Assembly (NCBI GenBank): GCA_013239625.1
Contig: MU053304.1
Coordinates: forward strand, 2,728,001 to 2,792,000
DNA length: 64,000 nucleotides
DNA from: Lama guanicoe
Lineage: Eukaryota
Direction of reading: 5' to 3'
The notes under the pieces were generated by a model that was not told the origin of the DNA, did no database searches, and worked only from the letters and a program-made list of their open reading frames with translations. The first letter of the stretch is position 1. Each line of letters starts with the position of its first letter. Made by a program: the position numbers and the translations under genes. Below are positions 8,606 through 53,950 of the stretch, piece by piece.

Positions 8606-8947
8606 TGCTTTGGACTACATTTGTGTCCCACCCCCAACCAAATCCATATTAAGAGGTAAGACTTTGGGGAGGTAATTAGGTTTAAATGAGGTCATGAGGG
8701 TACTGCTCCCACAATGAGGTTAGTGTCCTTATGAGAGAAAAAGACCAGAACATGTCCCCTTGGCCATGTGAGGAACAGTGAGAAGGCGCTAGCCACAAGC
8801 CAGGAAGCAGGCACTTATCAGAACTGGACCATGCTGGCATCATAATCTGGGACTTCCAGCCTCTAGAACTGTAAGAAATAAGTTTGTGTTGTTTAAGCCA
8901 ACCAATCTATGGTATTTTGTTACAGGATCCCAGAGCCAGCTAAGACA
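8606..8947 (+). mobile_element. MaLR LTR (MLT1A-like)
   Basis: TG start; 'gacttccagcctctagaactgtaagaaataagtttgtgttgtttaagcca'; ends 'ctaagaca'. Confidence 0.9.
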
Positions 8948-13385: not shown

Positions 13386-13429
13386 TTTTATACCTTAAGG
13401 TGGTTTTTTTTTTTGGTTTTATTTTTGCA

Positions 13430-14272
13430 TTTCTTCAAAGAAAATATACAAATGGCTAATACATACAGGAAAAGATGCTTACCATCATTAGTCATTAGGG
13501 AAATGCAAATTAAAAACCACAATGAGACTCCTCCTCATACTCACAGTATCGGCTTTAGTCAAAATGACATACAGTAAGTGCTGGTGAGGATGTGGAGAAA
13601 TCAGAACTCTTGTGCATTGCTGACAGAAATACAAAAGTGTGCGGCTCCTTTGGAAAAGAGTTTGGCAGTTCCTCAAAAAGTTAAACATTAGGGTTACCAT
13701 ATGACCCAACAATTCTATTCCTAAGTATACATCCAAGAGACTGGAAACATATGTCCACAGAAAAACTTGTATGCATACGTTTATAGCAGAATTACTCCCA
13801 ACAGCAAAAAGGTGGAAACAACCCAAATGTCCATGAACAGATGAATGGATAAACAGAATGTGGTATATCCGTAAGACACAATAGTATTTGGCAATAAAAA
13901 GAAACAAAGTATTTGCACATTTTATAATGTGGATAAAACTTGAAAACATTATGCTAGTGAAAGAAACCAAACACAAATGGCCATGAACAATATGATCCCA
14001 CTTATATGAAATATCCAGAATAGAGAAACCTATGGAGACTATATATATAACTGATTGCCAGGGACTTGAGGAGAAAGGAATGGGGTGTGACTGCTTTGCT
14101 AATGGGCACAGAGAATCTTTCTTGGGTAATGAAATAATGTTCTGGAGTTAGATAGCAGTGAGGGTTGCGTGACTTTGTGAATATGTTAAAAACCACTGAA
14201 TTGTACACTCTAAACGGGTGAGTTTTGTGGTATGTGAACTCTACCTTCACGAAAAAAACAAACAAACAAAAA
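13430..14272 (+). mobile_element. L1MB-like 3' end with A-rich tail
   Basis: 'ttaccatatgacccaacaattctattcctaagtatacatccaagaga', 'tggaaacaacccaaatgtcca', 'aaccactgaattgtacactctaaacgggtgag'. Confidence 0.92.
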
Positions 14273-15589
14273 TGAGACTGGAGAAGTTGGAAGACAAGAG
14301 GATAAGAGGTGCCAACACTGCTTGAACAGATTAAGGTGACCTACTAGGTAAACTTGGGCCCAAAGCGAGTCCAGGCTCAGCACACCACAATTAGCACTGA
14401 ATTTTGGCCATTTTAAAGCAAACTGCTGTGAAAGTTAAAAATATTTGGACGGGAGTGATCTGTAATTAAATGCAGGCATACTGTCATCAACCCAGACGAG
14501 AGCTATAGCCCTTCATAACTTGAGCAGTAAGTATTAAAATAATTGCATTTCTCCTGTGCACTAGTATCCTGACTATAACTGAAGACTACTTATTTCTTGA
14601 TATTTCAATGACTAGATAGTAATTAGTTTGCTTAAGTTGTCAAAAACAAACATGTACGTCTATCTTCACTTAAATGTGTCCATATGATAAAGTATGTCCA
14701 CTAGCCAAGAACTTAAATAATTCTTTTAAATCTATCATTGTGTAAATGCAGTTTATAGGCTTTTAATCAACCAGAATATTTTATCTTTATCCCAGATCTG
14801 GGATCTTAAATTCAAGCACCTACAATAAGCATGTACTGGTAAAGTAAAAATAAAATGAAGCAGGCAGATGTTGAAGGTAGGAAGAGATGGAAACTGAAAT
14901 AAAAGGGAGAGACCAAGACCATCTAAAGAAAACCCATTCACTCAGGCGCAGCTAATTAAAAAAATAAATTGCTTAGCATAGCAAGATTTACATTTTTAAA
15001 AGGAGTCAGGGGAGTGGGGATTCTATAATTGTAGAGTTTTATGTAGGAAATCTGCCCATTTAAAAAAAATTGGATATAGATTTTTGAAAACAGCTAAGAA
15101 CAATAAATTTCACATCATATTTTTCATTTCAAAAATTTTATTTCATTGAAGACCTTTATGCATATTCAGAAAAAAAATTGTCCTTTTTCTCTAGAATTCC
15201 AGATTCTGTATTTCCAGATTTCCATATTAAACTCCAGAGACCGCTGATGACACTATTATATCATTCAAATATATTTCATCTAATTCTCTGGATGACTGCT
15301 TAATCATTTATCAGATCATTATCAGGCTTTGTACAGTCTGTGTAATTAAATTTAACTAAACTAGGTACTGTCAGTTGGTTGTCTATAAAGTTAACTTTTT
15401 CATTCAAAATGACAAGAGCTTAGTCCATTTACAGAGACAGAATTATTACCATCACTCTGCATTTCCCTCTGGTTAGTGTCATTTTCCACCTGGAAGTCCA
15501 TGGAGCATCTCAAAATCAAAATATGTAAAGGATAATAAATGTTTTGATCATTATATTCTCTGCGTCTGTTTGACTCAATACCATCCTCA

Positions 15590-21420: not shown

Positions 21421-22637
21421 AGCAATAGATGACACTATGTTTCTTGGTTATAATTTTTATTACAATGTTTTTTGAAAATTTATGTTTTCCACATCTTTAG
21501 TGAGAAAGTAGTCACATACATAGAGCAGCATTTTATCTACTCTCTACATAAATTGTTAAAGCAGCTTTTTAAGAAACCATTTTTCATGGTTCTACAGAGG
21601 ATAGATCTGTTTTTAAAGAGTTTTTTTTTAAATGAAAAGAATAACATCAATGTATTTCTCCAACTAAATCTGATAAAAGATAACATTTCTCAATACATCC
21701 TCTTGCTATCCGACATCACAGTACTTTATAGAGCAGTACTTGCAAGTAGCTTGTAGATGAGACATTAATATTTATTACCTGAATAAAATTTTAATATTGA
21801 TTAACATTCATCATCAAATTGTACTCTCTAAGCAACCATTTGCTTGATCCTAATGAGTAACAGAATTATGCTTCTAAAAGAGGTATTAAATCCAAATCAT
21901 TCTAATATCTTCTATCGATTAACAGACAATTTTATCTATGCCACTAAATTACTTCAGTGATTTTCATTCACTAATTGCCTTACTTCTGTCCTTCTGTCAG
22001 TCCTTAGCAGTATCAATCAGGTATTTGACCTTACAGTTAGACAGAAATAGCACTTGTTAAAGTTGTAATTGGTATGTTCTAGTGTTAACAACACATTCAT
22101 AGCCCTTTGGGGATAGCTATATTTCATTTCTTGTTACTGAATAAACTAATCACATGTTGGTTTGACAAACTGTATTTTGGTTTGAAATAGGAATTAATGG
22201 CAATATTTATCTAAGGATTAGTAAATTCCGTTTCAGCCTGTGGCAGACTAGGAGATAAGAAACTCCTATCCTAGGAAAACTTGGTACAAAATTAATAAAA
22301 TGAAATTCAACAGAATTATATGTATAGCTCTACAATCAGATTCAAAATGAATCAAACAAAACTGTATGGGAAAGATCCTTTTTAAGATCAACTCATGTGA
22401 AAAAGTTACTCAAAAACTTAGCTAAAGCCAAGAAGAAGATGATGTAGATGTGTTAAAAATTGAAGTCTTAGGCTGCATACACAGAAACATAATATCTTTA
22501 TTTACAAAACTGGAATAAGCCACTGCATCTTTCTTGTGTGTTTTTTAAAAGTTAATACAGCTAATACAATATTATGAACACAGAGTATAGACTTATACAA
22601 ATGAGAAAAAAGTGGAATGATAAAGTCAGCTGTAGCA

Positions 22638-23245
22638 GGACTTCCTTTCTAACCATAACAGAATAGCTTACATCTGACCTATCATGCTGCTGCAAATAAC
22701 TAATTCATTTGAATGTATGTTCTGTAATACTGTTTGAATGTTTGCAGTCATGGACAGCATTCAGCACTAAAGTCCTTGAGGAAAGAGAGGCACAACAGGT
22801 GACCCACACTCATCTGGCTTCCTCATTCAAGACGTTCTTTGTGACGCTGGTGCTAGGAAATAGAACACGCACAGGACAGAGGCTTTCTGCATGGGAAAAA
22901 AAACAAAACAAAACAGAGACTGAAGTTTGGATTGCCAAGACAGTTGAGAGCAGATTACTGCAGAAGAAGGACATGCAGAAAATGAGCCCTGAATATCTAA
23001 ATATATATATATTCAGTTCTTTGGGTGAATCCCACCTGCACATGGACACGGAAAAACTTTGGAAGGCTTAGCAGGGAACAGCCACTGGAAGCCTGGAGAG
23101 ATGAATGTAGATTTCAGAGATCTCAACATGATGGGGAGTACTGGAATTTGGATATTACTAGATGGAGAGACTTTGGTGGACATCTTGGGATTTCAGTTGA
23201 GATTCCAAATACTCTCCAAGTAAGAATCACTTTCTAGGGCAGTAG
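22638..23245 (+). mobile_element. Old L1M 5' region
   Basis: 'ggacttcctttctaaccataacagaatagc', 'ctgaagtttggattgccaagacag' resemble L1MC/MD 5' ends. Confidence 0.6.
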
Positions 23246-24617
23246 AGTCTGTTGTGGATGCATCAGGTGAAAGGCAAAAGCTGTAATATAGGACCCTGAG
23301 TAGTGAACACAGCAGCAAAGGGTCCTTAACCATGGGTCTAAGCAGATTAAGTTAGCAGTCTTTCAAGGAAGTATCTTATTATGTCTTAGTGTGGTTTAGA
23401 ATATGTTATTTCGCTTGCCTTATGGGTGAAATGAGATCTACTGCTGCCAGGCAGTTGGCAGGGAACTTAGGGTTTTGCAAGCATTTTGATAGAAGAAAGA
23501 TTCATAGGGCAAGCAGCTAACAATTTCAGAAAAATAGTATTCTATACGGTCTTCAGGGTGGATCAGTGGGAGGAATTGTTGCAAACCGGCCTCCAGGTCA
23601 CTTCCCTCCTGGTGGGAAGGCAATCTGGGGCAGGGAGGAATCCCAATGGTTTATAAGGTTGGGGCATGTCATCTCCCTTTGTTGTTCTCTGGGCTGGGGT
23701 GATGTCTTCTGAGGTGCTTGTGTACTTGAATGTGACAGAAGCCAGCCCGGGGCAGGGGGTGGGGGATTGTCTTCCCAGATGGAAACCCATGAAGGGTAAG
23801 TGGGAGTATCTGGCTGGTGTTAAGTTCTGAGTACATGTGCTATTGGCTCAGGATGGCATTACAGGTATGGGCTTTACTGCAATTTGAGCAGATCTCATTA
23901 AGCTCTTTCGAATCATCAAGGATCCACCTTGCAAAGGAGCACTGGTTATCCTGATTGAGTTTTGTGGGGACTCTGTCCAAGATGCATACAAATTCTGGAC
24001 ACATTGATTAAGGACATTTTGTGGATGGCAGCTTTACAATTCTGAGACTGTCCCATCAAAATTATAGAAAGATCATTAGCACACAAATCTGCCTGCCAGA
24101 TGGGTCTGCTTTGGTTACACTGGGAAAGCCATTTCACCTGGGATTATTTTGAGGCATAGTGTAAGGAGAAAGAGACCCACTTAAGCATCATTTCCACTGG
24201 CAACATTTCCTGTAAAGAGATGTGAGCTCTGGTTCAGAATTCAAGCCTGGGGGCACTCTGGCTGAAACCCTTCTAATAGAGCCTGCTAGCATCTGGTTCT
24301 CAATCATTCTGAGTGCATGTGAGCACCTAACTGAATTTGTTCCAGCACATCTCCTGGGACAGGGATAAGCCTGAAGGGTCTACTAGCAACCTTACTCTCC
24401 AGGTTGTGCATGACAACAACAGCCGCAACAAAGAAGAACATTTGCACTTGACTAGTTTTCAAGGGTCTCCTTTAGGGCAAGCAGTTTGGATACTGACCCA
24501 TGAAGAAGTGTGATTGCTTTGGAGCAAGAGCTCATGCTCACTTCCTTGTGTAAAGTGATGTAGGGACTTGACCCAAATCCACTGATAGGACAGCTGGATT
24601 CTGCGGTTCCTTTGTGG

Positions 24618-25930
24618 TGTAAGCAAAGAAAAATCATTTTTCCTCCATCTTTCTATGTTCTGGCTGAGATTCTCCCCCTATAATAAAAGACAGATTAACA
24701 GGAGGAAAACAAACAGAAGTTTAATAGCATGTATAACTCCTGTATACATGAGCAATATTACTAAACCAAGCCTGATGTGCGGCAAAGCTTATCTATTGAT
24801 ACCCATTGTAGTGAGGGAAATTACAGCATTTATTACAGGGCACCAAGCATGGAGAATGGGCATCTAATCCTCAAAAGAGCCGAACTACCCAATGTCTTTC
24901 AGGGAAGGGTTTTTAAAGGCAGGATTTGGAGTGAATGTTTCAGGGTGCATGGTTTTCTCTGATTGGTTGGTGATAAGTTAACAGGGTAAGGTTTTAGGAT
25001 TTTTTTTTTTTTAATCTTAATCATCAACCTTTTGGTTCTAGCCATAATAGAGTCTATGTGCTGTAGTCAGCATGTAGTCACTGTCCTCTGCCTGGGTGGG
25101 AGGGTCTTAGTTTCTGCAGGAAAACTCAAAATAATATGTGTCAGATTGGGTCATGTATATCCTTTGAGGAGGAACTAGGACTCTGTGTTATTGCTGAACT
25201 ATTGTTTAAGTGATTATTACTTTCCTTGCTTGCCTGCCTTCCTTTGTTTCTACATTCCTCACTTCTCTAATTAGTAACTCTTTGGAATACAGGGAAGGCC
25301 TAGGAAACTAACGTCTTTTTCCATAAACAAAAATTAGGGAACACAGAGGGGCTTTTGTATCCAAGAAGGCCCTGCAGGGTCCTGCTCAGTTTCAATCCAC
25401 CTGCTTCTTTGATACCCCTCAATCCTGAGAACAGCAGAAAGACAAGAAAGGGAATAAAGTTTTGGATAGACAGGCTAATCTTAAACTCAGCAGGGAATTC
25501 TGTTTTGGAGAGAATCAGATTCAAAGATGCCCAGGAAAACTGATTACTCCCAAACTGAGTTAAGCCATGGCCTTAAAGACCAGCTCCAGCTAAAAATAAA
25601 AGTATTGCGGTTAGGGGAGGCCAGCTGTGGGAGGTAATCAGGAAAAGCACAACAAACAAAGACATGGTTATTATGCAGATTTAAATTCAAGCCTTCTCTA
25701 TTGGTAAGAGTTTCTAGAGGTTTGGTCATCTTCCTCTTCCAGGTATAGAGAGAAATATTCCCTTTCAAATGGAGATTTCCCTTATAAATGTAAACATCTG
25801 TTACAAAAGGGTAACTTCTACTCGGTTTCCAGAGCTTTCCCTCTGTTTGCCATTTCTAAAATATGATCATCTTAAAATAATCTTTATGCCTAGGAGGCAT
25901 ATTGTGGAATGGCAATTTTTGCTTCTTTTA
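24618..25930 (-). mobile_element. ERV1 MER4-group LTR (MER34/MER39-like) inserted in the EBLN-like element, itself interrupted
   Basis: TG at 24618, TA (decayed CA) at 25929-30; near-TSD gtgg (24614-17) / gtag (25931-34); 'aaaagacagattaacaggag', 'aaataatctttatgcctaggaggcatatt'. Confidence 0.8.
24756..25525 (-). mobile_element. Younger ERV1 3' LTR (MER41-like, 24756-25394) plus ~130 bp internal sequence
   Basis: LTR end 'gggtcctgctcagtttca' at 25394; the minus strand reads purine tract AAAGAAGCAGGTGGAT then TGAAAC; 'catttattacagggcaccaagc'. Confidence 0.8.
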
Positions 25931-26264
25931 GTAGATTTTATTTCCTAACGTGACTGGCATCCACTAGGCGAGGGGCTCTTTTCCTCTTTCTCTCTGAGAT
26001 CCGCATGGTTCTGCTAGTGAATCCTGGGGCTGTAATTCCAATCTCTTGCAAAATTTTTGATGAATATGGTTTAATTAACCAAACAGTGAGGCAAATCTGG
26101 TTGCCTTCACTTTGCAGCTGGTGTTGAGCCATTGTCTGAGCCAATAAAATCTGTATAATCACGATCTCTAAGAAACATGGTAGGCTTTTGTTCCCTTGGG
26201 CTATTACAAGAGGGTCATTTTGCTCTTTTTGAGGTCATCAAAAACACAAGTCCTAAATGCCTTG

Positions 26265-26715
26265 TATATTAGTTTCCTGTTAATGTTATTAAAAAATTAG
26301 AACAAACTTAGTGGCTTAAAAAATACAAATTTACTATCTTACAGTTCTATAGTTTGGAAGTCCTCAAATCAAAAGTTCAGCAAGAATGTGTTCATTCTGG
26401 AAGCTCTAGGGAGACTCCATTATCTTTCCTTTTCCAGCTTCCAGAGGATGTCTTCATTAAGGAATGACCCCTTCCTCTCACCACTCCAACTCTGCTTTTA
26501 TCTTGACATCTAACTATCCTTAGCTATGCCTCTAACTGTACTACTTTCCTCTTTAAAAAAGCCTTGTGATTATAATAAAGACAATCTGGATAAACCAGGA
26601 AAATCCTCCTAACTCAGTATCTTTGACTTATTCACATCTTATTTACACATTTACAGTTTCTGGAGATTTGGACATGGACATCTATGGGGGAAGGGACACT
26701 ATTCAGCCTACTGCA
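26265..26715 (-). mobile_element. MLT1D-like solo LTR splitting the EBLN-like reading frame
   Basis: 'tatattagtttcctg...acaaacttagtggcttaaa' to 'ctattcagcctactgca'; decayed 5-bp TSD ccttg/catgg. Confidence 0.88.
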
Positions 26716-26782
26716 CATGGTAAATAGAATAACCAAAAGAGACACAAATAACAGTACAAAACAACAATCATCAGATTATAGG

Positions 26783-27252
26783 TGTGGCAATTTGGAACTA
26801 TGCCACTAAGAGTTCCTTTCAAGAAAAAATTCTTGCAAGATAGGCACTTAGCTAACAGCCTGTAGTTCAGTACCTTTTGTAGCTACCATGGCTTTGAAAC
26901 AAATTCCAGCTTCTTTCTGGGCAATCTCCAGCCAATGACTGAGCATAACAAGGCTACTAGAACTTCTAGAAGCCATTTCTGCCCAACACAAGACTCTCCT
27001 AATAGGCAATCTTTGCTCTCATTTCCCTTTTCTGCCTGCTGAGACTGTCAGACATACATCAAAACTGAGAGTTTCCTTGCCTACTTCTACTTCCTCCCCT
27101 TTTTCTTTTCACAGATGTCAGATCTACAGCACAATCTGAAGACTTTTCCTTACCCATCTTGAGTCTTCACTCCATTATCTTTCACAGACACATCCCTGTA
27201 CATCCCTACCCCATCTCAGTGTCTTCTTAGTGAACTGGTATAAGTCAGTATA
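26783..27252 (+). mobile_element. ERVL LTR (LTR16B-like)
   Basis: 'ccagccaatgactgagca', 'ccatttctgcccaacacaagactctcctaataggcaatctttgctc'; near-TSD atagg/ctagg. Confidence 0.75.
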
Positions 27253-28869
27253 CTAGGAGCCCCTGATTGACCACTGGACTTTATGCGGTTTAGAAGGAGA
27301 GGGAAGGAAGAGAAAAATGTAGAATGGAGAAATTTGATAGAACTTCATGAAAGGAGAGGTTGGATGTTTATTCAGAGGCTATGTAGGATTGACAGAGCAG
27401 CAGAGAGACGACAGGGCAATTTTGGGGAGAGGAGCACAAAAAAGGGTGGTGAAATCATAAGGTATCCTTGAAGGACAAGAGGTAGATCCTTCTTCCTTGG
27501 GGAGTTTCATTAATAAAAGTTAGAAATGAACAGTCTTCATAATAAGTGATATGTGAACTCTGATGCCAGAGCCCAAGGCATCTGTCAGACATCTTGACAG
27601 ACATCTTGGTCTAAGAGCATCATTATGAGACAGTCTTAAAGTCTCAATACTTACAATTTACTTTCTTTGTGTTTGTTGCAGGCTATTATTTTCTTTGTTA
27701 ATTCAAGAGAGGAAGCATATCTAAGTTTGTTTTTAGGCAAAAGTGAGGCAGTTAGAATCTAGTGTTCTTTGAGCCCCCTTTCTTACATAATCTTAGAGTT
27801 ATTCTTCACCCTTATAGATTTACATGCTTCACTCTTACAGGGGACAGGTAAAACATTAATTTGTTCATCTCTTTTTACTGAGGTAGGACCATGGTTGATC
27901 TAACTTCTAGGCTCTTCAGCTGTGAAGGGAAAAAAAAAAGTCATTTGGCTAAGAATTCACTCTTTGAATATTCCTTTTAAATTCAGGAATTAGGTTCATA
28001 TGTACTTGATAGATATGGTGAAAATGGACACTTTGGTTTTGAGTCTGGACTTTCTGATCACGGATTATTATCAGATTATATTTTCAAATTAGTATGTTCT
28101 CTACAGAAGGTATGATATACTCAGTCCTCTTTACAATTTTTCATTTTGTATTAGTGTCAAATTTTTATATTCTATCATCGCCTCCAAGCACACCCTTCCC
28201 ATCATGTGTATTTATCTCCCCCCTCCAATAATTTTACTTCTAGTGAAAAAGAGAAGGCACCCAGTGGCTAAAAATAAAAGTCTTGGCGAGTTACAGATTT
28301 CATTTTAACCTTAAGGACAAGCCTGAAAACTATTCTTCAAATGGATAAATTGAGTCCCAAAATAGTAACACACTTGTGCTGACAGATGGAGGTGCAGATA
28401 GAAGAATGTGTATGGCAGTTGTTGCCTGAAGCACTTCCATCTGTCACCAAGTCTCCACTGTGTCTGTAGGTTCAAAACTACTCTATCCACTAATGGGCAA
28501 TTGTACATGCTTTCTCCATTCATTCTGCTATGAAGTGGACTAAATGGCTCACAAGGATCTTTGAAGCAAAAATAATTAAATATATAACTAGCGATTTCTA
28601 TCTCTCTGGAACTAAACATATGCTATGTAAAAATACCACCTCTCGTGGCTTTTCCCAGGTTAAAAAAAAAAATCTAGGGGGAAAAAAAAAGATGAGTAAA
28701 ATAGGTTGGAAGGGGAAGGGGAAAGAAGAGAGAAAGATCTCCCACTCAAGTGTCAAGAACCTATGTCTTCTTCCCTTAATAAAAAAGTCATTTTCTTTTC
28801 ATGTCTCTTCATAGCTACACAATAAAGATCGAATGAATGCTAAAATCTAACTTATTATTCTTATTTGTA

Positions 28870-29090
28870 GGCAACACAGTAAATATGAACACAGAGTCTG
28901 CAACCAGACTATCTTGGCTAAATCCAGGCAGCCTCTAGTACCAGCATTGGGATCTGAACTTTGGGTATCTCAGTTCTCTCACCTGTGAAATGAAGATTGG
29001 TAAACAGAGCTATTTCATTGGTTTGATGGGGACTGAATCAATAAATATATGTAAAGTTCTCAGAGTAGTGACTGGCTCATGATCAGCCCC
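28870..29090 (+). mobile_element. MIR
   Basis: 'tctcagttctctcacctgtgaaatgaagat...aatatatgtaaagttctcagagtagtgactggctcat'. Confidence 0.75.
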
Positions 29091-29422
29091 AACACGCCTG
29101 GACTTGGCCATCTAGCCTGTTGTCATCATGCGAACCTGACTGGGCCCCATAATATTTATTGAGACATGATATGAGTGCAGCAGAGACTTTTGGTCAGCGT
29201 AACCCCAAGTAGGCTCTCCAAGATCATAGCAGAGCATCTCCGGCCAGCCACTACTGATATGACATGATACTATACATTGAAAACCCTGTTAGAAATAAAA
29301 TAAACCTTGTCAATAAAAAATTTTCATAATTTCTTCTAATGCATTTTTGATTTTAGAAATATTTTTAGAAATAATTTTGAGTTATTTATAATGTATATTG
29401 GATTATTTTAAGAAAACATTTT

Positions 29423-29999
29423 ATTTTAATTTTATTTAACATTTTTATTGATTTATAATCATTTTACAATGTTGTGTCAAATTCCAGTGCAGAGCACAAT
29501 TTTTCAGTTATACATGAGCATACATATATTCATTGTCACATTTTTTTCTCTGTGAGCTACCATAAGATCTTGTGTATATTTGCCTGTGCTATACAGTATA
29601 ATCTTGTTTATCTATTCTACAATTTTGAAATCCCGTCTATCTCTTCCCAACCTCCGCCCCCTTGGCAACCACAAGTTTATAATCTACGTCTATGAGTCTG
29701 TTTCTGTTTTATATTTATGCTTTGTTTGTTTGTTTTTGTTTTGTTTTGTTTTTTTAGATTCCACATATGAGTGATTTCATATGGTATTTTTCTTTCTCTT
29801 TCTGGCTTACTTCACGTAGAATGACATTCTTGAGGAGCATCCATGTTGCTGCAAATGGCATTATGTTGTCGGTTTTTATGGCTGAGTAGTATTCCATTGT
29901 ATAAATATATCACATCTTCTTTATCCAGTCATCCATTGATGGACATTTAGGCTGTTTCCATGTCTTGGCTATTGTAAATAGTGCTGCTATGAACATTGG
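29423..29999 (-). mobile_element. Young, 5'-truncated lineage-specific L1 (camelid L1_Vpa-like)
   Basis: Well-preserved 3'UTR; TSD aaacatttt at 29414-22 and 30000-08, followed by aa (TT/AAAA endonuclease site on the L1 strand). Confidence 0.92.
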
Positions 30000-32065
30000 A
30001 AACATTTTAAGAGAAACATGCCCTCTGATTTCTCTCAATGCATATTACATATATTTTTTATATTTGAATTTTGATCACCTTTAGTTAAGTTAAATGCAGT
30101 AAAAATTTCTCTTATTTTTCTTTTTAAATGGCTCACCAATATTGATAACTGATTAAATCCATGTTTCACCAATTATTTAAAATGTGATAATCATTATGTG
30201 TAAAATTTTCATATCACAATCAAAAGTTTCTATTCAGTTCTATTGATTTGTTTCTGTTTCTTCTTTCCAAATATTTTAATTAATGTAGGATTTTAGTACA
30301 CTCAAATGTCTAATCATACCAGGACCCCCTGCTCTTATTATTTCTCATTTTCAGGGCAATCGTGGATATTTCTGCATGATACTTTTTCCAGAAAATGTTT
30401 AGCTTCAATTTTTCTTTCTGAAATTCCACAAAAAAAAAATGCCTACAGACACTTCAACTGAACGGTTTTGAATGTATGGACTAACATAGGGAAAACTACA
30501 ACCTTTACAAAAGTGAATTTTTCATTCTGTGGTCAAATATAGTTTTACAGTGACTTTAAAAATTCAGTAAAAATGCCATCAGACTGGGTCCAAAACTAGA
30601 ATCTACCTGCATCCAATCTTGACTAAGTCTGGGGATGGATTTAGGATTGAGAGTCAGAAAGTCTGTGTTACATGATCCACTCTGTGAAAATTAGGTTGGT
30701 CAAGGACTTCTCTAATAATACTTTTGGCGGTAAAGGGTGGGAAAAAATACTTATAAAAACAGATTGTAACTTTGTATATTGCAGAAATATCTCAAAGATA
30801 AATTGTACCACAGGAAGATATTGCTTCTCTTCATGCATGAAGCAATTACTGACTCCCATCCCGAATGTGCAGGGAGCTCTTTCTTCCACAGTTGATTGGG
30901 ATTTCAGTGAACCAGCCACTCTGTCGCTTGATTCTCATTAAGAACAATGACATGCTTTTCTCAAGAGGCTATTTGGGGCTTGTCTGGGCAGGTAGCTTGA
31001 GGCTTTGGACCTGCTCATAAGTAAAGGGCCACTAAAGGATTAAGCTGTCCCCTCGTGAGCAGTAATTCTATTTTCTGACAAACTCGGCTTCTTCCACACA
31101 GTTTTCTCCTCATTTGTTTTATACAACTTAGAATTTTCTAAATTAGGAATGAATGCTGAAACCTTTTGATATTATATTCATATTCACTCAGAATTTGTTC
31201 AGTAAAGTTCAAAAAATTCAATAGGATACAGTGAGACTTATTTTTTAAATGTCAGTTTTTAGAATTAGAAAAGTAACACATGCCTAGTTTAACAATTCAA
31301 ACAATAAGTGCTTTAATTTAAACAATAAAGAGGCATTGGAATTAGTGTCAACCCTCTGAAGCAGGCACTGCTAGCTATTTGATTTAGATGCAAAATCATA
31401 CACATATACAAAGATGTGGACTTCCCATGGATTTCACTTCAGGAGAGCTAAGAAGGGGTCACAAAATACATCTTTAAAGGGAAGCAACTGTTAGGGTTGA
31501 ACTGACTGCCTGGTCCCTCACCTCAGTGCCCCTTATTTTTGCACAGAGCCAAGGCAATTGTCTGGACCCATCACAATGCAAGGCCAGCACCACAACAGCC
31601 CCTTAAATTTGAAATACTGTATGGCATTTTCCAAATTCTGAGAAAAAGCGTGCATTCTCTGCTTTTAAAGAAATTATACAGTCAACCAACAGGCTTTCTT
31701 TATTCTAGGATCATACCTCCAGATTGAGGAAATCCCTCCCTGTTCCCCTCTGAGGAGCCTGAAAGCCTTGGGGCTTGTTTGACTAGCCCCACCCCCCAAA
31801 TCTTCTTACTCTTTCCACCCACAAGATCCCATGACATTTATTGTCTCTCCCATTCATTTAACACCTGTTGTCAGTCTCTTGAAACTGCTTGCATTCATTC
31901 TTTTCTATTTTATTTAACATTCTGTGGGTCTCTTTAGCTAGAATACAAATTCCCTGAGAAAAGGGACCTTATATTTTCTTATTTATGCTTGTCACAAAAT
32001 TCAACACACCATTATGTTCATAACAAGCACTTGGTAAAAAGCTATATACATGTGAGTTTAGTGTG

Positions 32066-37815: not shown

Positions 37816-38807
37816 TTAGATAAAAGTGTAGTCACTAAGGGTCATCTCTTGGGAAGCACAACTGGACACAGGGGTGTGAAAGTAGACAGCCACAAACATA
37901 GCATCATTTGCAGAATTCCATCCCAAAATGTGTATTGTCTCCCAACTAGTCATTGCCACGGTAACATATGATTGAAGCGCTTACTAAATGTCTAATACTT
38001 TGACCTAGAAGGGAAACATTTTTAAATGACCCTCACCCACTATAAACTTAAGACAAAATCTGAGCCCACTCACATCATATTTAGGCAAATGGATTCTAAA
38101 ATCAGGTTGGGCCCAAATTCCAAATTCCTAATTTATTTGGGTCACAGAATATTGAAATTCTGTGCTATATTTTAAGTTGATCTTCCAATTACTTTGTTTT
38201 AATTTGTACAGTTTTCAAGGAGGATGTGGCTTCTATGATTCTAATTTTAAAATAATTTTCACAGACATACAGATTTATTTTATTGGAGCTAGATAAAGGA
38301 GTATGTAATGAGTTGATTTTCAGGAGGTTTATGGGTCAAATAAACCTCCTCAGTCTGGAAAACATAGTTTACAACTTTGAGTAAACAAATCTAACAAATG
38401 CAGTTTTCTTTAACAAGTATTTTCAATTTTAATGATAGAATAAACAGTTCTTTAAACTACTTAAAATAACTTTTATTGTACAAAAATTTTCTTTCCTCTT
38501 CTTGCAAAGAAAAAAATTAGGTAGAAACTGAAATTTGTAGTTAAACAGAATAAATATAGATTAAAATAATTTCTGTAGTAATTTTACGTAAATATTCACT
38601 GACATTTTCCTTGTCTGTTTAAACAAGCATGGTGGCTGAATATTTGTCTTGTGGAAGCACCTGTATCAAAAATCTCCATTTGCTTTGAATTATACAGAAG
38701 TTTATGACCAAGACTGAATTTTAAAATGCAGAGTTTATCATTTTCTGTTTCCTTACTAGGGTCATGTTTTCTAATCTATTCTGTGAAGCTGTCTTTTAAT
38801 AGGGGCA

Positions 38808-39307
38808 TATACTTTTCAATGCTTCTAAAACAAATTTCCCCAAACTTAGTGGCTTGAAACAATAAAAAGTTATTATCTTAACAGTTCTGGAGATCAAAAG
38901 TCCAAGACGGATTTTGTTGGGTATCAGCAGGGCTGTGTTCCTTCTGGGGATATAAGGAAGAAGCAATTCCTTCGCCTTTCCATCTCCTAGAGGCTGCCTG
39001 CTTTCTTGGCTCTTGGCCTCAGTTCCCAATTTTCAAAGTCAGCAACATCAGACCAGGCTCTTCGCATGCTGACGTCTTTCTGGTTCTCTCACTGCCTCCC
39101 TCTTTTACTTTAAGAATCTTTGACATTATAACAGTGTATCCGAACAATGTTAGATAATCTCCTTATTTTAAAGTCTTATTTTAAAGTTGATTAACAACCT
39201 CAATACCACTCCCCTTTCCCCTTGTCTTGTACTATCACATATTTACAGGCTCCATGATTTCGGATGTGGATGTTTTAGGGGTTAGGAGCATTATTCTACC
39301 TAACACA
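38808..39307 (-). mobile_element. MLT1D-like LTR
   Basis: 'caaacttagtggcttgaaacaa...cagcagggctgtgttccttctgg...cattattctacctaacaca'. Confidence 0.88.
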
Positions 39308-47234: not shown

Positions 47235-48810
47235 TTTTAATTGAAGTAAAATGTGCATAACATAAAATTTATCATTTAACCATTTTTCATTGCATGATTC
47301 ATGGGCATTAAATACATTCACATTGCTGTGCAACCATCATTACTATACGTATCCAGAACTTTTTCATCACCTCAAACTGAAACTGTACATCCATTAAACA
47401 ATAACTCTTCATCCCTTCTTCCCTCGGCTGTTCAGAAACCATTATTTTATTTTCTGTCTCCATGAGTTTAACCACTCTAGGTACCACATACAAGTGGAAT
47501 TGTACAATATTTGTATTTTTGCGGCTGGTTTATTTCACTTGGTATAGTATCTTCAAGATTCATCTATGTTGTAGCATGTATCAGAATTTCATTCCTTTTT
47601 AAGGGTGACTATTCCATTTATGTCTATAGCATATCCTGTTTATCCATTCATCCATCAGTGGACACTTGGGTAGTTTTCATCTCTTTGGCTATTGTGAATA
47701 ATGATGCTATAAATATGGGTATATAAATATATCTTTATGTCTTTGCTCTCATATATTCCTTTGAGAATATATCTTCAGCAGTGGAATTTCTGGATCCTGT
47801 GGTGATTCTATATTTAATTTTTTGAGGAGCCGCCATATTGGTTTATGTAACAGCTGTACCATTTTACATCCCCACTATCAGTGCCAAACATTTGAATTTT
47901 TCCACATCCTCATCAGTACCTGTTATTTTCTGTTTTTTTTTTTTTTAATAGTAGCCATTCTTTTAGGTATGAAGTGATTTCATTGTGGGTTTTGGTTTCA
48001 TTTTCTTAGCAATTAGTGATGGTGAGCATCTTTTCATGTGCTCACAGAGCCCATTTGTGTATCTTCTTTGGAGAAATGTCTATTCAAATTCTTTGCAAAT
48101 TTTTTAATTGGATTCATATTCTGCTGCTCTTCATTCTTTTGCATGTGGATATCCAGTTTTCTCAATGTTATTTGTTGAAAAGATTTCCCTTTCCCCACTG
48201 AATGGTCTTGGCAGCCTTGTCAAAAATAATTTGACCAAGTATGCAAAAGTTTATTTCTGTGTTTTCTATTCTGTTCCATAGTTCTATATGTCTCTCCTTA
48301 TGCCATTTCCACACTGTTGTGACTACTGTAGCTTTGCACTAAATTTTGAAATCAGGAAGGTTGATTTTCAAGATTGTTTTGGAGAATAATTACTTCTGTC
48401 ATTTTGCTATTTGCTTTCTATATGCCTTAGAGCTTTTCTGTCCTTCATTTCCTGCATTACTGTCTGCTGTCTGTTTATTTAAATTTTATTGTGAAATTTT
48501 AGAATTTCTTTATCATTTCCTTTTTGCAAATATTCTTTAACTATTTTCTTTGTGGTCACCATAAAAATTAAACTTAACATCCCAAATTTTAACATTCTTA
48601 TCTGAATTTATACCGGCTTGATTTCAATCACATAGAAAAAACTCTGCTTCTATACAGCTCTATCTCCACTCCTTTCATTTACTGATCATAATATTCTACC
48701 TTTATGCTTTGTGTACCCAAAACATATATGTTAATAATTTTAATGCATTAGTCTCTTCAATTATATAGAAAACAAAAAGTAGGGTTACACAAACCAAAAT
48801 GGTAATACTA
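47235..48810 (-). mobile_element. L1MB-like 3' end plus further antisense L1 fragments
   Basis: 'atacattcacattgctgtgcaaccatca', 'ggctattgtgaataatgatgctat', 'ttggagaaatgtctattcaaat'. Confidence 0.9.
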
Positions 48811-50126: not shown

Positions 50127-50253
50127 TAGAAAACATGCTTACAAGAGACTTAGTATAACAGAACAGGTGCTTTTTTTCAAATATAAGTTGTTGTTATTAT
50201 TATTGTTATTTCTGAGGCAGGGGAGAAAAACTAAAGAATTGGAGGATATAAAA

Positions 50254-50714
50254 TGTTATGGGTTGAATTGTGTCCCCTAAAAATTCATATATATGTTCTA
50301 GTCCTAACCCCCATAGCACAGAATGTGACCTTATATAGAAACAGGATCATTGCAGATATAATTAATGAAGTTGAGTTCATACTGGAGTAGTCTGTCCGTA
50401 ATCCACTGTAACCAGAATCTTTATAAAAAGGAGAAATCTGGACACAGACATATATACAGGGAGAATGCCATGGAAGATGAAGGCAGAGATTCAGTGATAT
50501 TCTACAAGCCATGTAAGGACAAGATTTCCAAGAAACCATCAGAAGCTGGGAGAGAGACATGGAACACATTCTTTCCCACAGCCCTTGGGTGTTACCAGTC
50601 CTGCCAACATCTTGATTGTAGACTTTGGGCCTCCAAAACAGTGAGACAATAAGTTTCTGTTTAAGCAACCTAGTTTGTGATACTTTGCTATGGCAGTTCT
50701 AGCAAACCAACATA
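50254..50714 (+). mobile_element. MLT1C-like solo LTR
   Basis: 'tgttatgggttgaattgtgtccc'...'tttgctatggcagttctagcaaaccaacata'. Confidence 0.92.
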
Positions 50715-51149
50715 CTGTTCTAAAACTGGTGATATATAAATCCATCCATATTCTTAATTTTCCAAAGTCTAGGTATAGAGGGAAAAACGGGAGACTTTCC
50801 CTGCTGTACTCCCTGAATTTTGCTGTTTGGTAAGTGGATGCACACACCATGTTGTTTTTGTGAACTTCACACAACGTAGTGAGAAGGCCTCCAAGTGAAG
50901 CCTTGAGAGAGACTGGGGCTACTGATGGGTGTGGAAGAGGGGCCTTTGTCCACCAGGTGGAGGGTTGAAGGGCTCCAGAAACTCGCTTCCACCACCTGAG
51001 GTACCACGGACAGAGCACTGGGCCTGGGCCCTCCGTAAAGCCGAAGACACCTCCTGGGGTTTGAGGATGCAGTGAGCTCTAGACTGTCACGTCCTTCTCT
51101 GGAGAATCCCATGATGTTTGACTACTTTGACTTGTTTCTTAGGAAATGT

Positions 51150-52495: not shown

Positions 52496-52940
52496 GCAAT
52501 CCCACTCCTGGGCATATATCTGGAGAAAACTATAATTTGAAAAGACACATCAACGCCAACATTCATAGCAGCACTATTTACAATAGCCATGACATGGAAG
52601 CAACATAAATGTCCATCAACATATGATTAGAGAAAGAAGATATGATATATATATGATGTATATATATACACATTTGAATATTACTCAACCATAAAAGAGA
52701 GTGAAATAATACCATTTGCAGCAATATGGATGGACCTAGAGATTATTATACTGGTGAAGGAAGTCAGAGAAAAACAAATATCATATGATATCACTCATAT
52801 GTGGAATCTAAAAAAAAAGACATAAATATTATTTACAAACCAAAAACAGACTCACAGACATAGAAAACAAACTGTGATTACCAAAGGGGAAAGGGCAGGG
52901 GAGGGATAAATTAAGGATTCAGTATTAGCATATACAGTAT
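52496..52940 (+). mobile_element. Cetartiodactyl/camelid-type L1 3' end
   Basis: 'gcaatcccactcctgggcatatatctggagaaaactataatttgaaaagacaca', 'atttacaaaccaaaaacagactcacagacatagaaaacaaact'. Confidence 0.9.
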
Positions 52941-52944
52941 ATTT

Positions 52945-53950
52945 TCAAATCCCGAAAATGTTTTACGTGAAAATTGACAAAATTTTTTGGAAAAGCAGGG
53001 GGCAAAAATATACTCAAAACATTCCTAAATTTAGAAAAAAGTAATAAAAGGGGCTTTTTCTACAGAACATAAAAAACTTACCTAGCCATAAAAATTAATA
53101 TAGTTAATTTGGTGTAGGAAGTCACAAATATATCAAACACAGAATTCAGAAACAGTAATTATGATATTTGATAGAAGTAGCATTAATGATCTAAAGAAAT
53201 GGAATAATTAATCAATACATGGATTTAGATAATAAAGTACACAATAGAAAAATGTACAAAGGGCATTTAAAAAGCTATATATGGATGAGTAAATATGTAT
53301 GGCAGACATATGAAAAGACATTCAAACTCATCAGTGATCTAAGCAATGCAAGTCAAGATCACAATCAGATATTATTTTACATTCATAAGACTGACAAATA
53401 TTTACAACCCTGACGATGTTGATATAGAAATGAAGCAATGAAAACACATGTACTCTTGTGGAATTTATAATTAGTACAACCACTTTGGAAAACAATTCAT
53501 TTTCCATTTTGTACACATGACAATATGTATATTCATGGTCCAGGAATTTCCTGTCCTAAGGATACATCTGCATATGTGCACCATAAGAAGGGTGCAAGAA
53601 TATCCCAAATGCCTAACAAGAAAAAAGCCCAACAGGGAAAATAATCAAGTCGATTTTTGTATGATCACTATGGAGTATTATATAGCAGTGAAAATGAGTG
53701 GGTTTCAGCTACAAATGACTTACATATATTTTAGAAATATCACTCTAAGTTAAAAATACCAGACTACTTATGACTCTTACAAAAAAGAGAAATTACTTAT
53801 TGTATTGCTAGGTATAATTACATATATAGCAAACTTATTTTTAAAAGAAGGGAAATGATAAACACAAAATGAAAGATAATAGCTATGTCTGAGAAAGAGG
53901 CAGGGGGATAAGATGAGGAACCCATGCACAGATGAAAGACATTTAGGGAT
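52945..53950 (+). mobile_element. Old L1ME-like fragments
   Basis: 'tagtacaaccactttggaaaacaatt', 'ctatggagtattatatagcagtgaaaatgag'. Confidence 0.7.

Follow-up and report, generated by a model that had tools for sequence, protein, structure and literature searches.

Nested LTR-type inserts in a decayed, probably ERV-L-type element of Lama guanicoe

Introduction

What is the decayed stretch that old LTRs interrupt in this guanaco contig, and how far back does their nesting place it? The DNA analysed, which we call the window, comprises 64,000 nucleotides of Lama guanicoe (assembly GCA_013239625.1, contig MU053304.1, positions 2,728,001 to 2,792,000 of the forward strand), and all coordinates below are counted from its first letter. 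A preliminary description had read the stretch as a viral gene on the minus strand, split by an MLT1D-like LTR, and had proposed the order of insertion as a deep calibration point for that viral lineage. Our analysis indicates that the host of these inserts is most likely a retroviral relic of an ordinary kind, whose coding strand would be the opposite one.

Anatomy of the locus

The nesting of LTRs inside a decayed element is real, with one host stretch broken by three inserts at 24618-25930, 26265-26715 and 26783-27252. The left coding-like part of the host (23780-24617, plus strand, left end approximate) carries Gag-like blocks recognised by eye along with many stops and frameshifts, and homologous fragments (P0001-P0027) match it at 23851-24620. 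The middle part (25935-26259, plus strand) contains the 98-codon minus-strand stop-free stretch (25938-26234 in the list of open reading frames) that belongs to the frame preferred in the preliminary description. Between the second and third inserts lie 57 bp of plus-strand host (26721-26777), whose phase agrees with that of the host sequence immediately left of the second insert. A probable right part (27258-27500, plus strand, right end approximate) follows the third; it is covered by no homologue and holds one Gag-like word in phase with the upstream blocks. The preliminary description had begun the element further left, and its segment at 23250-23780, to which we assign no strand, is a possible 5′ leader and only a candidate part of the host: it showed no homologue match or motif, as tblastn matches of the homologous fragments start at 23851 and Pfam was negative.

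Decay affects the host throughout, with 6-19 stops per phase in about 298 codons and several frameshifts relative to its homologues. Within 22000-29000 the element is not bracketed by any long direct repeat, and no flanking host LTR was seen. On inspection of the sequence, a poly(A/T) run is absent at both element ends, although decay could erase such a run. Rfam returned 0 matches. No gene of the surrounding genome was recognised within the window, which therefore offers no anchor for synteny.

The insert at 26265-26715 (451 bp) is a copy of an interspersed repeat: five other stretches of the window align with it at 63-74% identity, the local scores of 53-124 exceed the shuffled maxima (27-36), and blastn gives four matches elsewhere in the window. 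We take it to be an MLT1-type (MaLR) solo LTR, presumably in minus orientation; subfamily D is the putative assignment of the preliminary description. Its length falls in the 350-500 bp expected of such a solo LTR with a 5 bp duplication, and no CpG is left in it. The presumed target-site duplication (26260-26264 and 26716-26720) is weak: its two copies match at 3/5 positions, a level attained by 12% of random pairs (chance 0.124). The insert and one 5 bp flank together measure 456 bp, a multiple of three, so both flanks are in the same phase. According to the supplement of PMC1914374, consensus lengths are 505 bp for MLT1D, 365 bp for MLT1A0 and 464 bp for LTR16B. The insert is thus 54 bp shorter than MLT1D and longer than MLT1A0, a length that excludes an unexpanded MLT1A0. 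In the local alignments, the five further MLT1-like copies, 63-74% identical, lie at 134-342, 800-880, 8850-8900, 38750-38950 and 50250-50750.

An LTR16-like LTR had been placed close to the MLT1-type one, and this was borne out. A 470 bp insert in plus orientation (26783-27252), with TG..TA ends, lies 67 bp away, and its flanking 5-mers (26778-26782 and 27253-27257) are 4/5 alike, with a chance of 0.02. Its LTR16 identity is presumed; a second copy was not found in the window, and its length fits the 464 bp of LTR16B. The preliminary description was silent on the third insert, of 1313 bp (24618-25930, LTR-type, strand unassigned), which has TG..TA ends and flanking 4-mers 3/4 alike. We take it to be ERV1-like, perhaps two nested LTRs. 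It is probably the youngest of the inserts, because the homologue P0008 matches both of its sides in a copy that lacks it.

Reading frames of the host stretch

Over the four host segments, the plus phases hold 15, 19 and 19 stops and the minus phases 12, 14 and 6, in about 298 codons each. The frame of the preliminary description is the stop-poorest of all six (6 stops in 299 codons); by a Poisson estimate, the chance that one of six phases would be so poor in stops is roughly 1 in 12. Frames antisense to coding sequence often contain few stops. The details of that frame fared less well. Removal of the MLT1-type LTR had been said to restore an LPGI motif. In fact the two flank copies are unequal, neither spells the motif by itself, and a codon has to be taken from each to obtain it. 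The peptide as it was written is absent from the DNA, since its first five residues lie in another minus frame than the rest, and a different stop-free minus frame is in phase at the upstream peptide. Nor is the frame open across the MLT1-type insert, as 3 stops fall within the first 10 codons past the junction.

Homologous fragments

A phmmer search with a minus-frame piece against 1.84 billion proteins found 8 unnamed clusters, with E up to 0.001 and 35-55% identity; Pfam gave no match on the 8 homologues. Their matches to the window are spread over all three minus frames, and the frame also changes between one homologue and another; they are therefore fortuitous open stretches of related DNA. 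For example, P0002 matches the three minus frames at 57% of 70, 49% of 43 and 67% of 24 residues, a pattern that reflects likeness at the DNA level and not selection on one minus frame. Residues 5-57 of P0008 match 26096-25935 at 57%. No homologue spans or reaches either of the two old LTR sites, so that continuity of the host across both, including the 57 bp at 26721-26777, rests on phase and on the by-eye likeness to HERV-L Gag described below.

A random-sequence simulation converted protein identities of 56% and 40% into DNA distances of about 24% and 35%. Distances of this size are far beyond those among camelids, and they would suit orthologues in other orders. However, the paralogous MLT1 copies in the window are 26-37% apart, and because they reach similar distances the orthology of the 8 clusters is not established; these could be orthologues or paralogues. 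One cluster (P0002 and P0013-P0021, 10 members, of which three compared are 90-95% alike) is about 56% identical to the window, closer than most (35-55%), and may represent the orthologous sequence of related hoofed mammals. Among sequencing runs, 19 of 24 rows from 8 studies and 4 coded organisms contain at least 90% of the words of the stretch; as such a search sees near-identical DNA only, these matches say only that close relatives share it.

Other searches added nothing to these fragments. Further homologue searches gave 22, 389 and 1 candidates, none of them scoring. A metagenome scan passed 2 of 47 stretches, and both were rejected because their GC content is 56-57% and their DNA does not match that of the window. 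Patterns derived from the window found 0 of 28 in viral contigs, with 26 loci lacking a tblastx match, and a scan of viral contigs with a retroviral RT pattern for an ERV-L protein found 0. Pfam, run on six whole frames and 28 pieces of the element to 27600, found no viral family; NCBIfam was blank on 4 pieces; sequence searches of the PDB with 6 queries gave a best E of 0.21; and of two ESM Atlas queries, one had no usable match and one stood at 0.77. Two single-sequence folds were uninformative, with mean pLDDT of 43.7 and 34.0. A literature search on this exact locus, which covered sources other than the locus table of the bornavirus survey, found nothing.

Evidence for a probable class III (ERV-L-type) host

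We consider the host to be, with a probability of about 0.6, a dead class III (ERV-L-type or MaLR-like) internal fragment, gag-like on the plus strand, into which the LTRs inserted later. HERV-L-like words on the plus strand were first noticed by eye and then searched for. Of three words searched in the 3,993,252 characters of the supplements of PMC4724089, two occur once each and one is absent. Both words found lie in the HERV-L Gag record of that source, 29 residues apart, and their counterparts in the window share a plus frame, with 33 codons from one to the other. When insert lengths are counted, seven words that were selected by eye in four segments share a single plus phase and follow the order of HERV-L Gag; the words were chosen with the frame known, so the single phase is not the result of a blind test. 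Among the word blocks are some on both sides of the MLT1-type and of the LTR16-type insert, which speaks for a host that continues past each of the two LTRs.

The match to HERV-L Gag is one made by eye and not a statistical one, and both the ERV-L identity and the coding strand are inferred. Block scores under BLOSUM62, summed by hand, are about 23-30 and do not exceed the shuffled means of 31-40. Two pairs of blocks are spaced 22 and 86 codons apart in the window compared with 45 and about 128 in HERV-L, where both spacings were counted by hand and the second is approximate. Further observations count against a class III host: the plus-strand stops outnumber those of the minus frame favoured by the preliminary description, no flanking LTR of the host was identified, and 8 clusters among 1.84 billion proteins is a low number for a repeat family. 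On the plus strand of 27251-31000, none of three short motifs of protease and RT occurs, and Pfam is blank to 27600; a truncated or gag-only element would be compatible with the missing pro and pol. Class III Gag is described as escaping motif-based detection (PMC4724089), and the blank Pfam scans therefore fit a class III host. Our probability also reflects how common old class III internal sequences are: among 360 human repeats ranked by age, HERVL40 is placed 2, ERVL-E 4 and HERV16 41 (PMC1914374).

Compared with the HERV-L Gag record of PMC4724089, which comes from a spuma-like class III ERV, the host has its blocks in the same plus-strand order and shares one exact five-residue and one exact four-residue word. 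It resembles HERV-L Gag and the older class III internal sequences ERVL-E, HERV16 and HERVL40 in that no zinc finger is seen, in escaping Pfam and in being interrupted by younger repeats. It differs from HERV-L in its low identity, its shorter block spacing and the lack of any pro, pol or LTRs of its own among the features found, and so is not HERV-L itself. The most likely course of events is that a class III ERV entered an early placental ancestor by ordinary retroviral integration and then decayed neutrally, leaving a gag-like plus-strand region with no pro or pol behind it. LTR16-type, MLT1-type and 1.3 kb ERV1-type elements would later have landed in it, each then being cut to LTR sequence, most likely by LTR-LTR recombination.

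The absence of a significant family match, by any tool and on either strand, would also be expected if the host were an unnamed low-copy repeat or plain single-copy DNA, in which case both protein readings would be chance and the LTRs would still date the host but nothing viral. Stop density is near background in five of the six phases, and none of the likenesses to bornavirus N, G and M seen by eye survived testing. We nevertheless regard such an origin as unlikely, given the ordered, one-phase blocks in common with HERV-L Gag, exact five-residue word included, and given the GC content of the host segments (0.41-0.47), which lies above that of most of the window (0.29-0.43).

A possible viral group other than known ERVs

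A more far-reaching proposal takes the locus as the single-copy fossil of an undescribed virus group or class III lineage, older than LTR16B activity and than the placental radiation, with the eight star-like homologues as orthologues in different orders. We hold this to be decidedly unlikely; the DNA distances of the homologues would suit it, and paralogous MLT1 copies in the window reach similar ones. Were this reading true, the insertion would be among the oldest datable viral insertions in mammals. For a host that is non-retroviral or from an undescribed virus, the LTR16-type nesting would give a minimum age above the 96.5 My of the bornaviral elements (10.1101/2020.12.02.408005).

A non-retroviral viral gene on the minus strand, bornavirus-like or of another family, integrated once and later split by LTRs, is very unlikely. 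Its low stop count, the 98-codon stop-free stretch and the small number of homologues (8 clusters), as expected of a single-copy locus, speak for it, and Boreoeutheria-wide bornaviral elements do exist. Six such elements have been dated to at least 96.5 My (10.1101/2020.12.02.408005), and named boreoeutherian bornaviral loci are given in the supplement of PMC11089739. The endogenous bornavirus-like elements of these sources and of PMC5834213 resemble the host in age, decay, stops and frameshifts, and camelid copies are known for one EBLG; the host, in contrast, has no similarity to 16 bornavirus genomes. No search supported a viral gene on this strand.

The comparison covered 16 natural bornavirus genomes from ortho- and carboviruses, 2 of them with carbovirus gene order; culterviruses and other virus families stand outside that set and are covered only by the Pfam, PDB and ESM Atlas searches, which were blank, as were the homologue searches with the minus frames. 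In tblastn with the ORFs of the 16 genomes, nothing was better than E 0.06 in the non-LTR parts. The best rows inside 23200-27600 (L protein, E 0.011-0.04) fall within the 1.3 kb LTR insert and were taken as chance. Frameshift-aware alignment of 10 proteins to both strands, with X at the inserts, reached a top score of 51, within the shuffled maxima of 35-62 over 20 tests. That score belonged to carbovirus N on the minus strand, whose own shuffled maximum was 46 (12 shuffles). Profiles of bornavirus N, G and L, run on 156 frames, ranked control stretches above the element, and no control stretch was better than E 1.4. The host as a bornavirus fossil thus gave no signal by tblastn, frameshift-aware alignment or profile with the 16 genomes, and these three tests led us to abandon the likenesses to bornavirus G, M and N (the last on either strand) that had been seen by eye. 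The published alpaca EBLG (PMC5834213) was also rejected as this element, its row containing none of the element's peptides when compared by eye. Elsewhere in the window, the best tblastn rows of the whole screen lie on the minus strand at 52706-52951 (G proteins, 26-27% identity over 85 residues, E 0.004) and are probably chance.

Age of the insertion

The logic of dating by nesting holds. Among 360 human repeats ranked by age, where low ranks are old, LTR16B is placed 99, MLT1D 130, MLT1C 142 and MLT1B 154, followed by L1MA9 at 156 and MLT1A0 at 172 (PMC1914374). The last two are given there as clade-specific insertions that mark the separation of the lineage of primates and rodents from that of carnivores and artiodactyls. 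As the activity of LTR16B and MLT1B-D precedes this boreoeutherian split, an age above about 95-100 My is probable for the host, which probably predates the split whichever of MLT1B-D the insert is. This age, like the presence of orthologues in other orders, is inferred from published repeat ranks. The two old inserts resemble published MLT1B-D and LTR16B solo LTRs (PMC5753468, PMC1914374) in length class, 5 bp flanks and decayed TG/CA-type ends; for MLT1B-D, the likeness extends to the other copies of the insert in the window, and its length, 54 bp below the MLT1D consensus, is the difference.

The nesting would date less if the MLT1-type insert belonged to a late subfamily or had moved late in Laurasiatheria, or if the LTR16-type LTR bordered the host and did not split it. 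The subfamily assignments of both LTRs are putative, no homologue spans either site, and MLT1A0 insertions sort laurasiatherian orders (PMC9141728), but we find this most improbable because the 451 bp insert is longer than the 365 bp MLT1A0, because the LTR16 flanks are 4/5 alike, and because the laurasiatherian marker file of that study, with at least 6 occurrences of MLT1A, has 0 of MLT1B, C, D, E and LTR16 among the rows listed. Vargiu et al. describe MaLR pieces in younger ERV backbones, possibly artefacts, and raise the question of an age below 80 My for some MaLR insertions (PMC4724089).

A close precedent is an ERV-L insertion dated to 104-110 My, orthologous in 11 mammals and with nested repeats shared among placentals (Lee et al. 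2013, PMC3758187). Like the host described here, it is an ERV-L relic in which nested repeats argue for an age at or before the placental radiation. It differs in having LTRs, inserts of MIR and MER3, and orthology that was shown; the inserts here are LTRs, and orthology is not shown. With an ERV-L-type group already dated to 104-110 My by orthology (PMC3758187) and the virus of this locus not named, the special calibration point proposed earlier is not supported. If the class III reading holds, the locus is a further old fragment of ERV-L type that contains younger repeats, common in kind and ordinary in age, and it adds no calibration point to the published one. Such nesting is common, since ERVL-E has 3,664 against 137 in the two interruption columns of the human table in PMC1914374, with the meaning of the columns taken from its main text.

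Other repeats in the window

Just right of the host, a short element with inverted ends occupies 27530-27640 and is perhaps a small DNA-transposon relic. Repeat fragments at 13428-14340, 29657-29999, 47518-48114 and 52556-52889 are similar to one another. We take them to be L1-like and other repeats, a presumptive family assignment.
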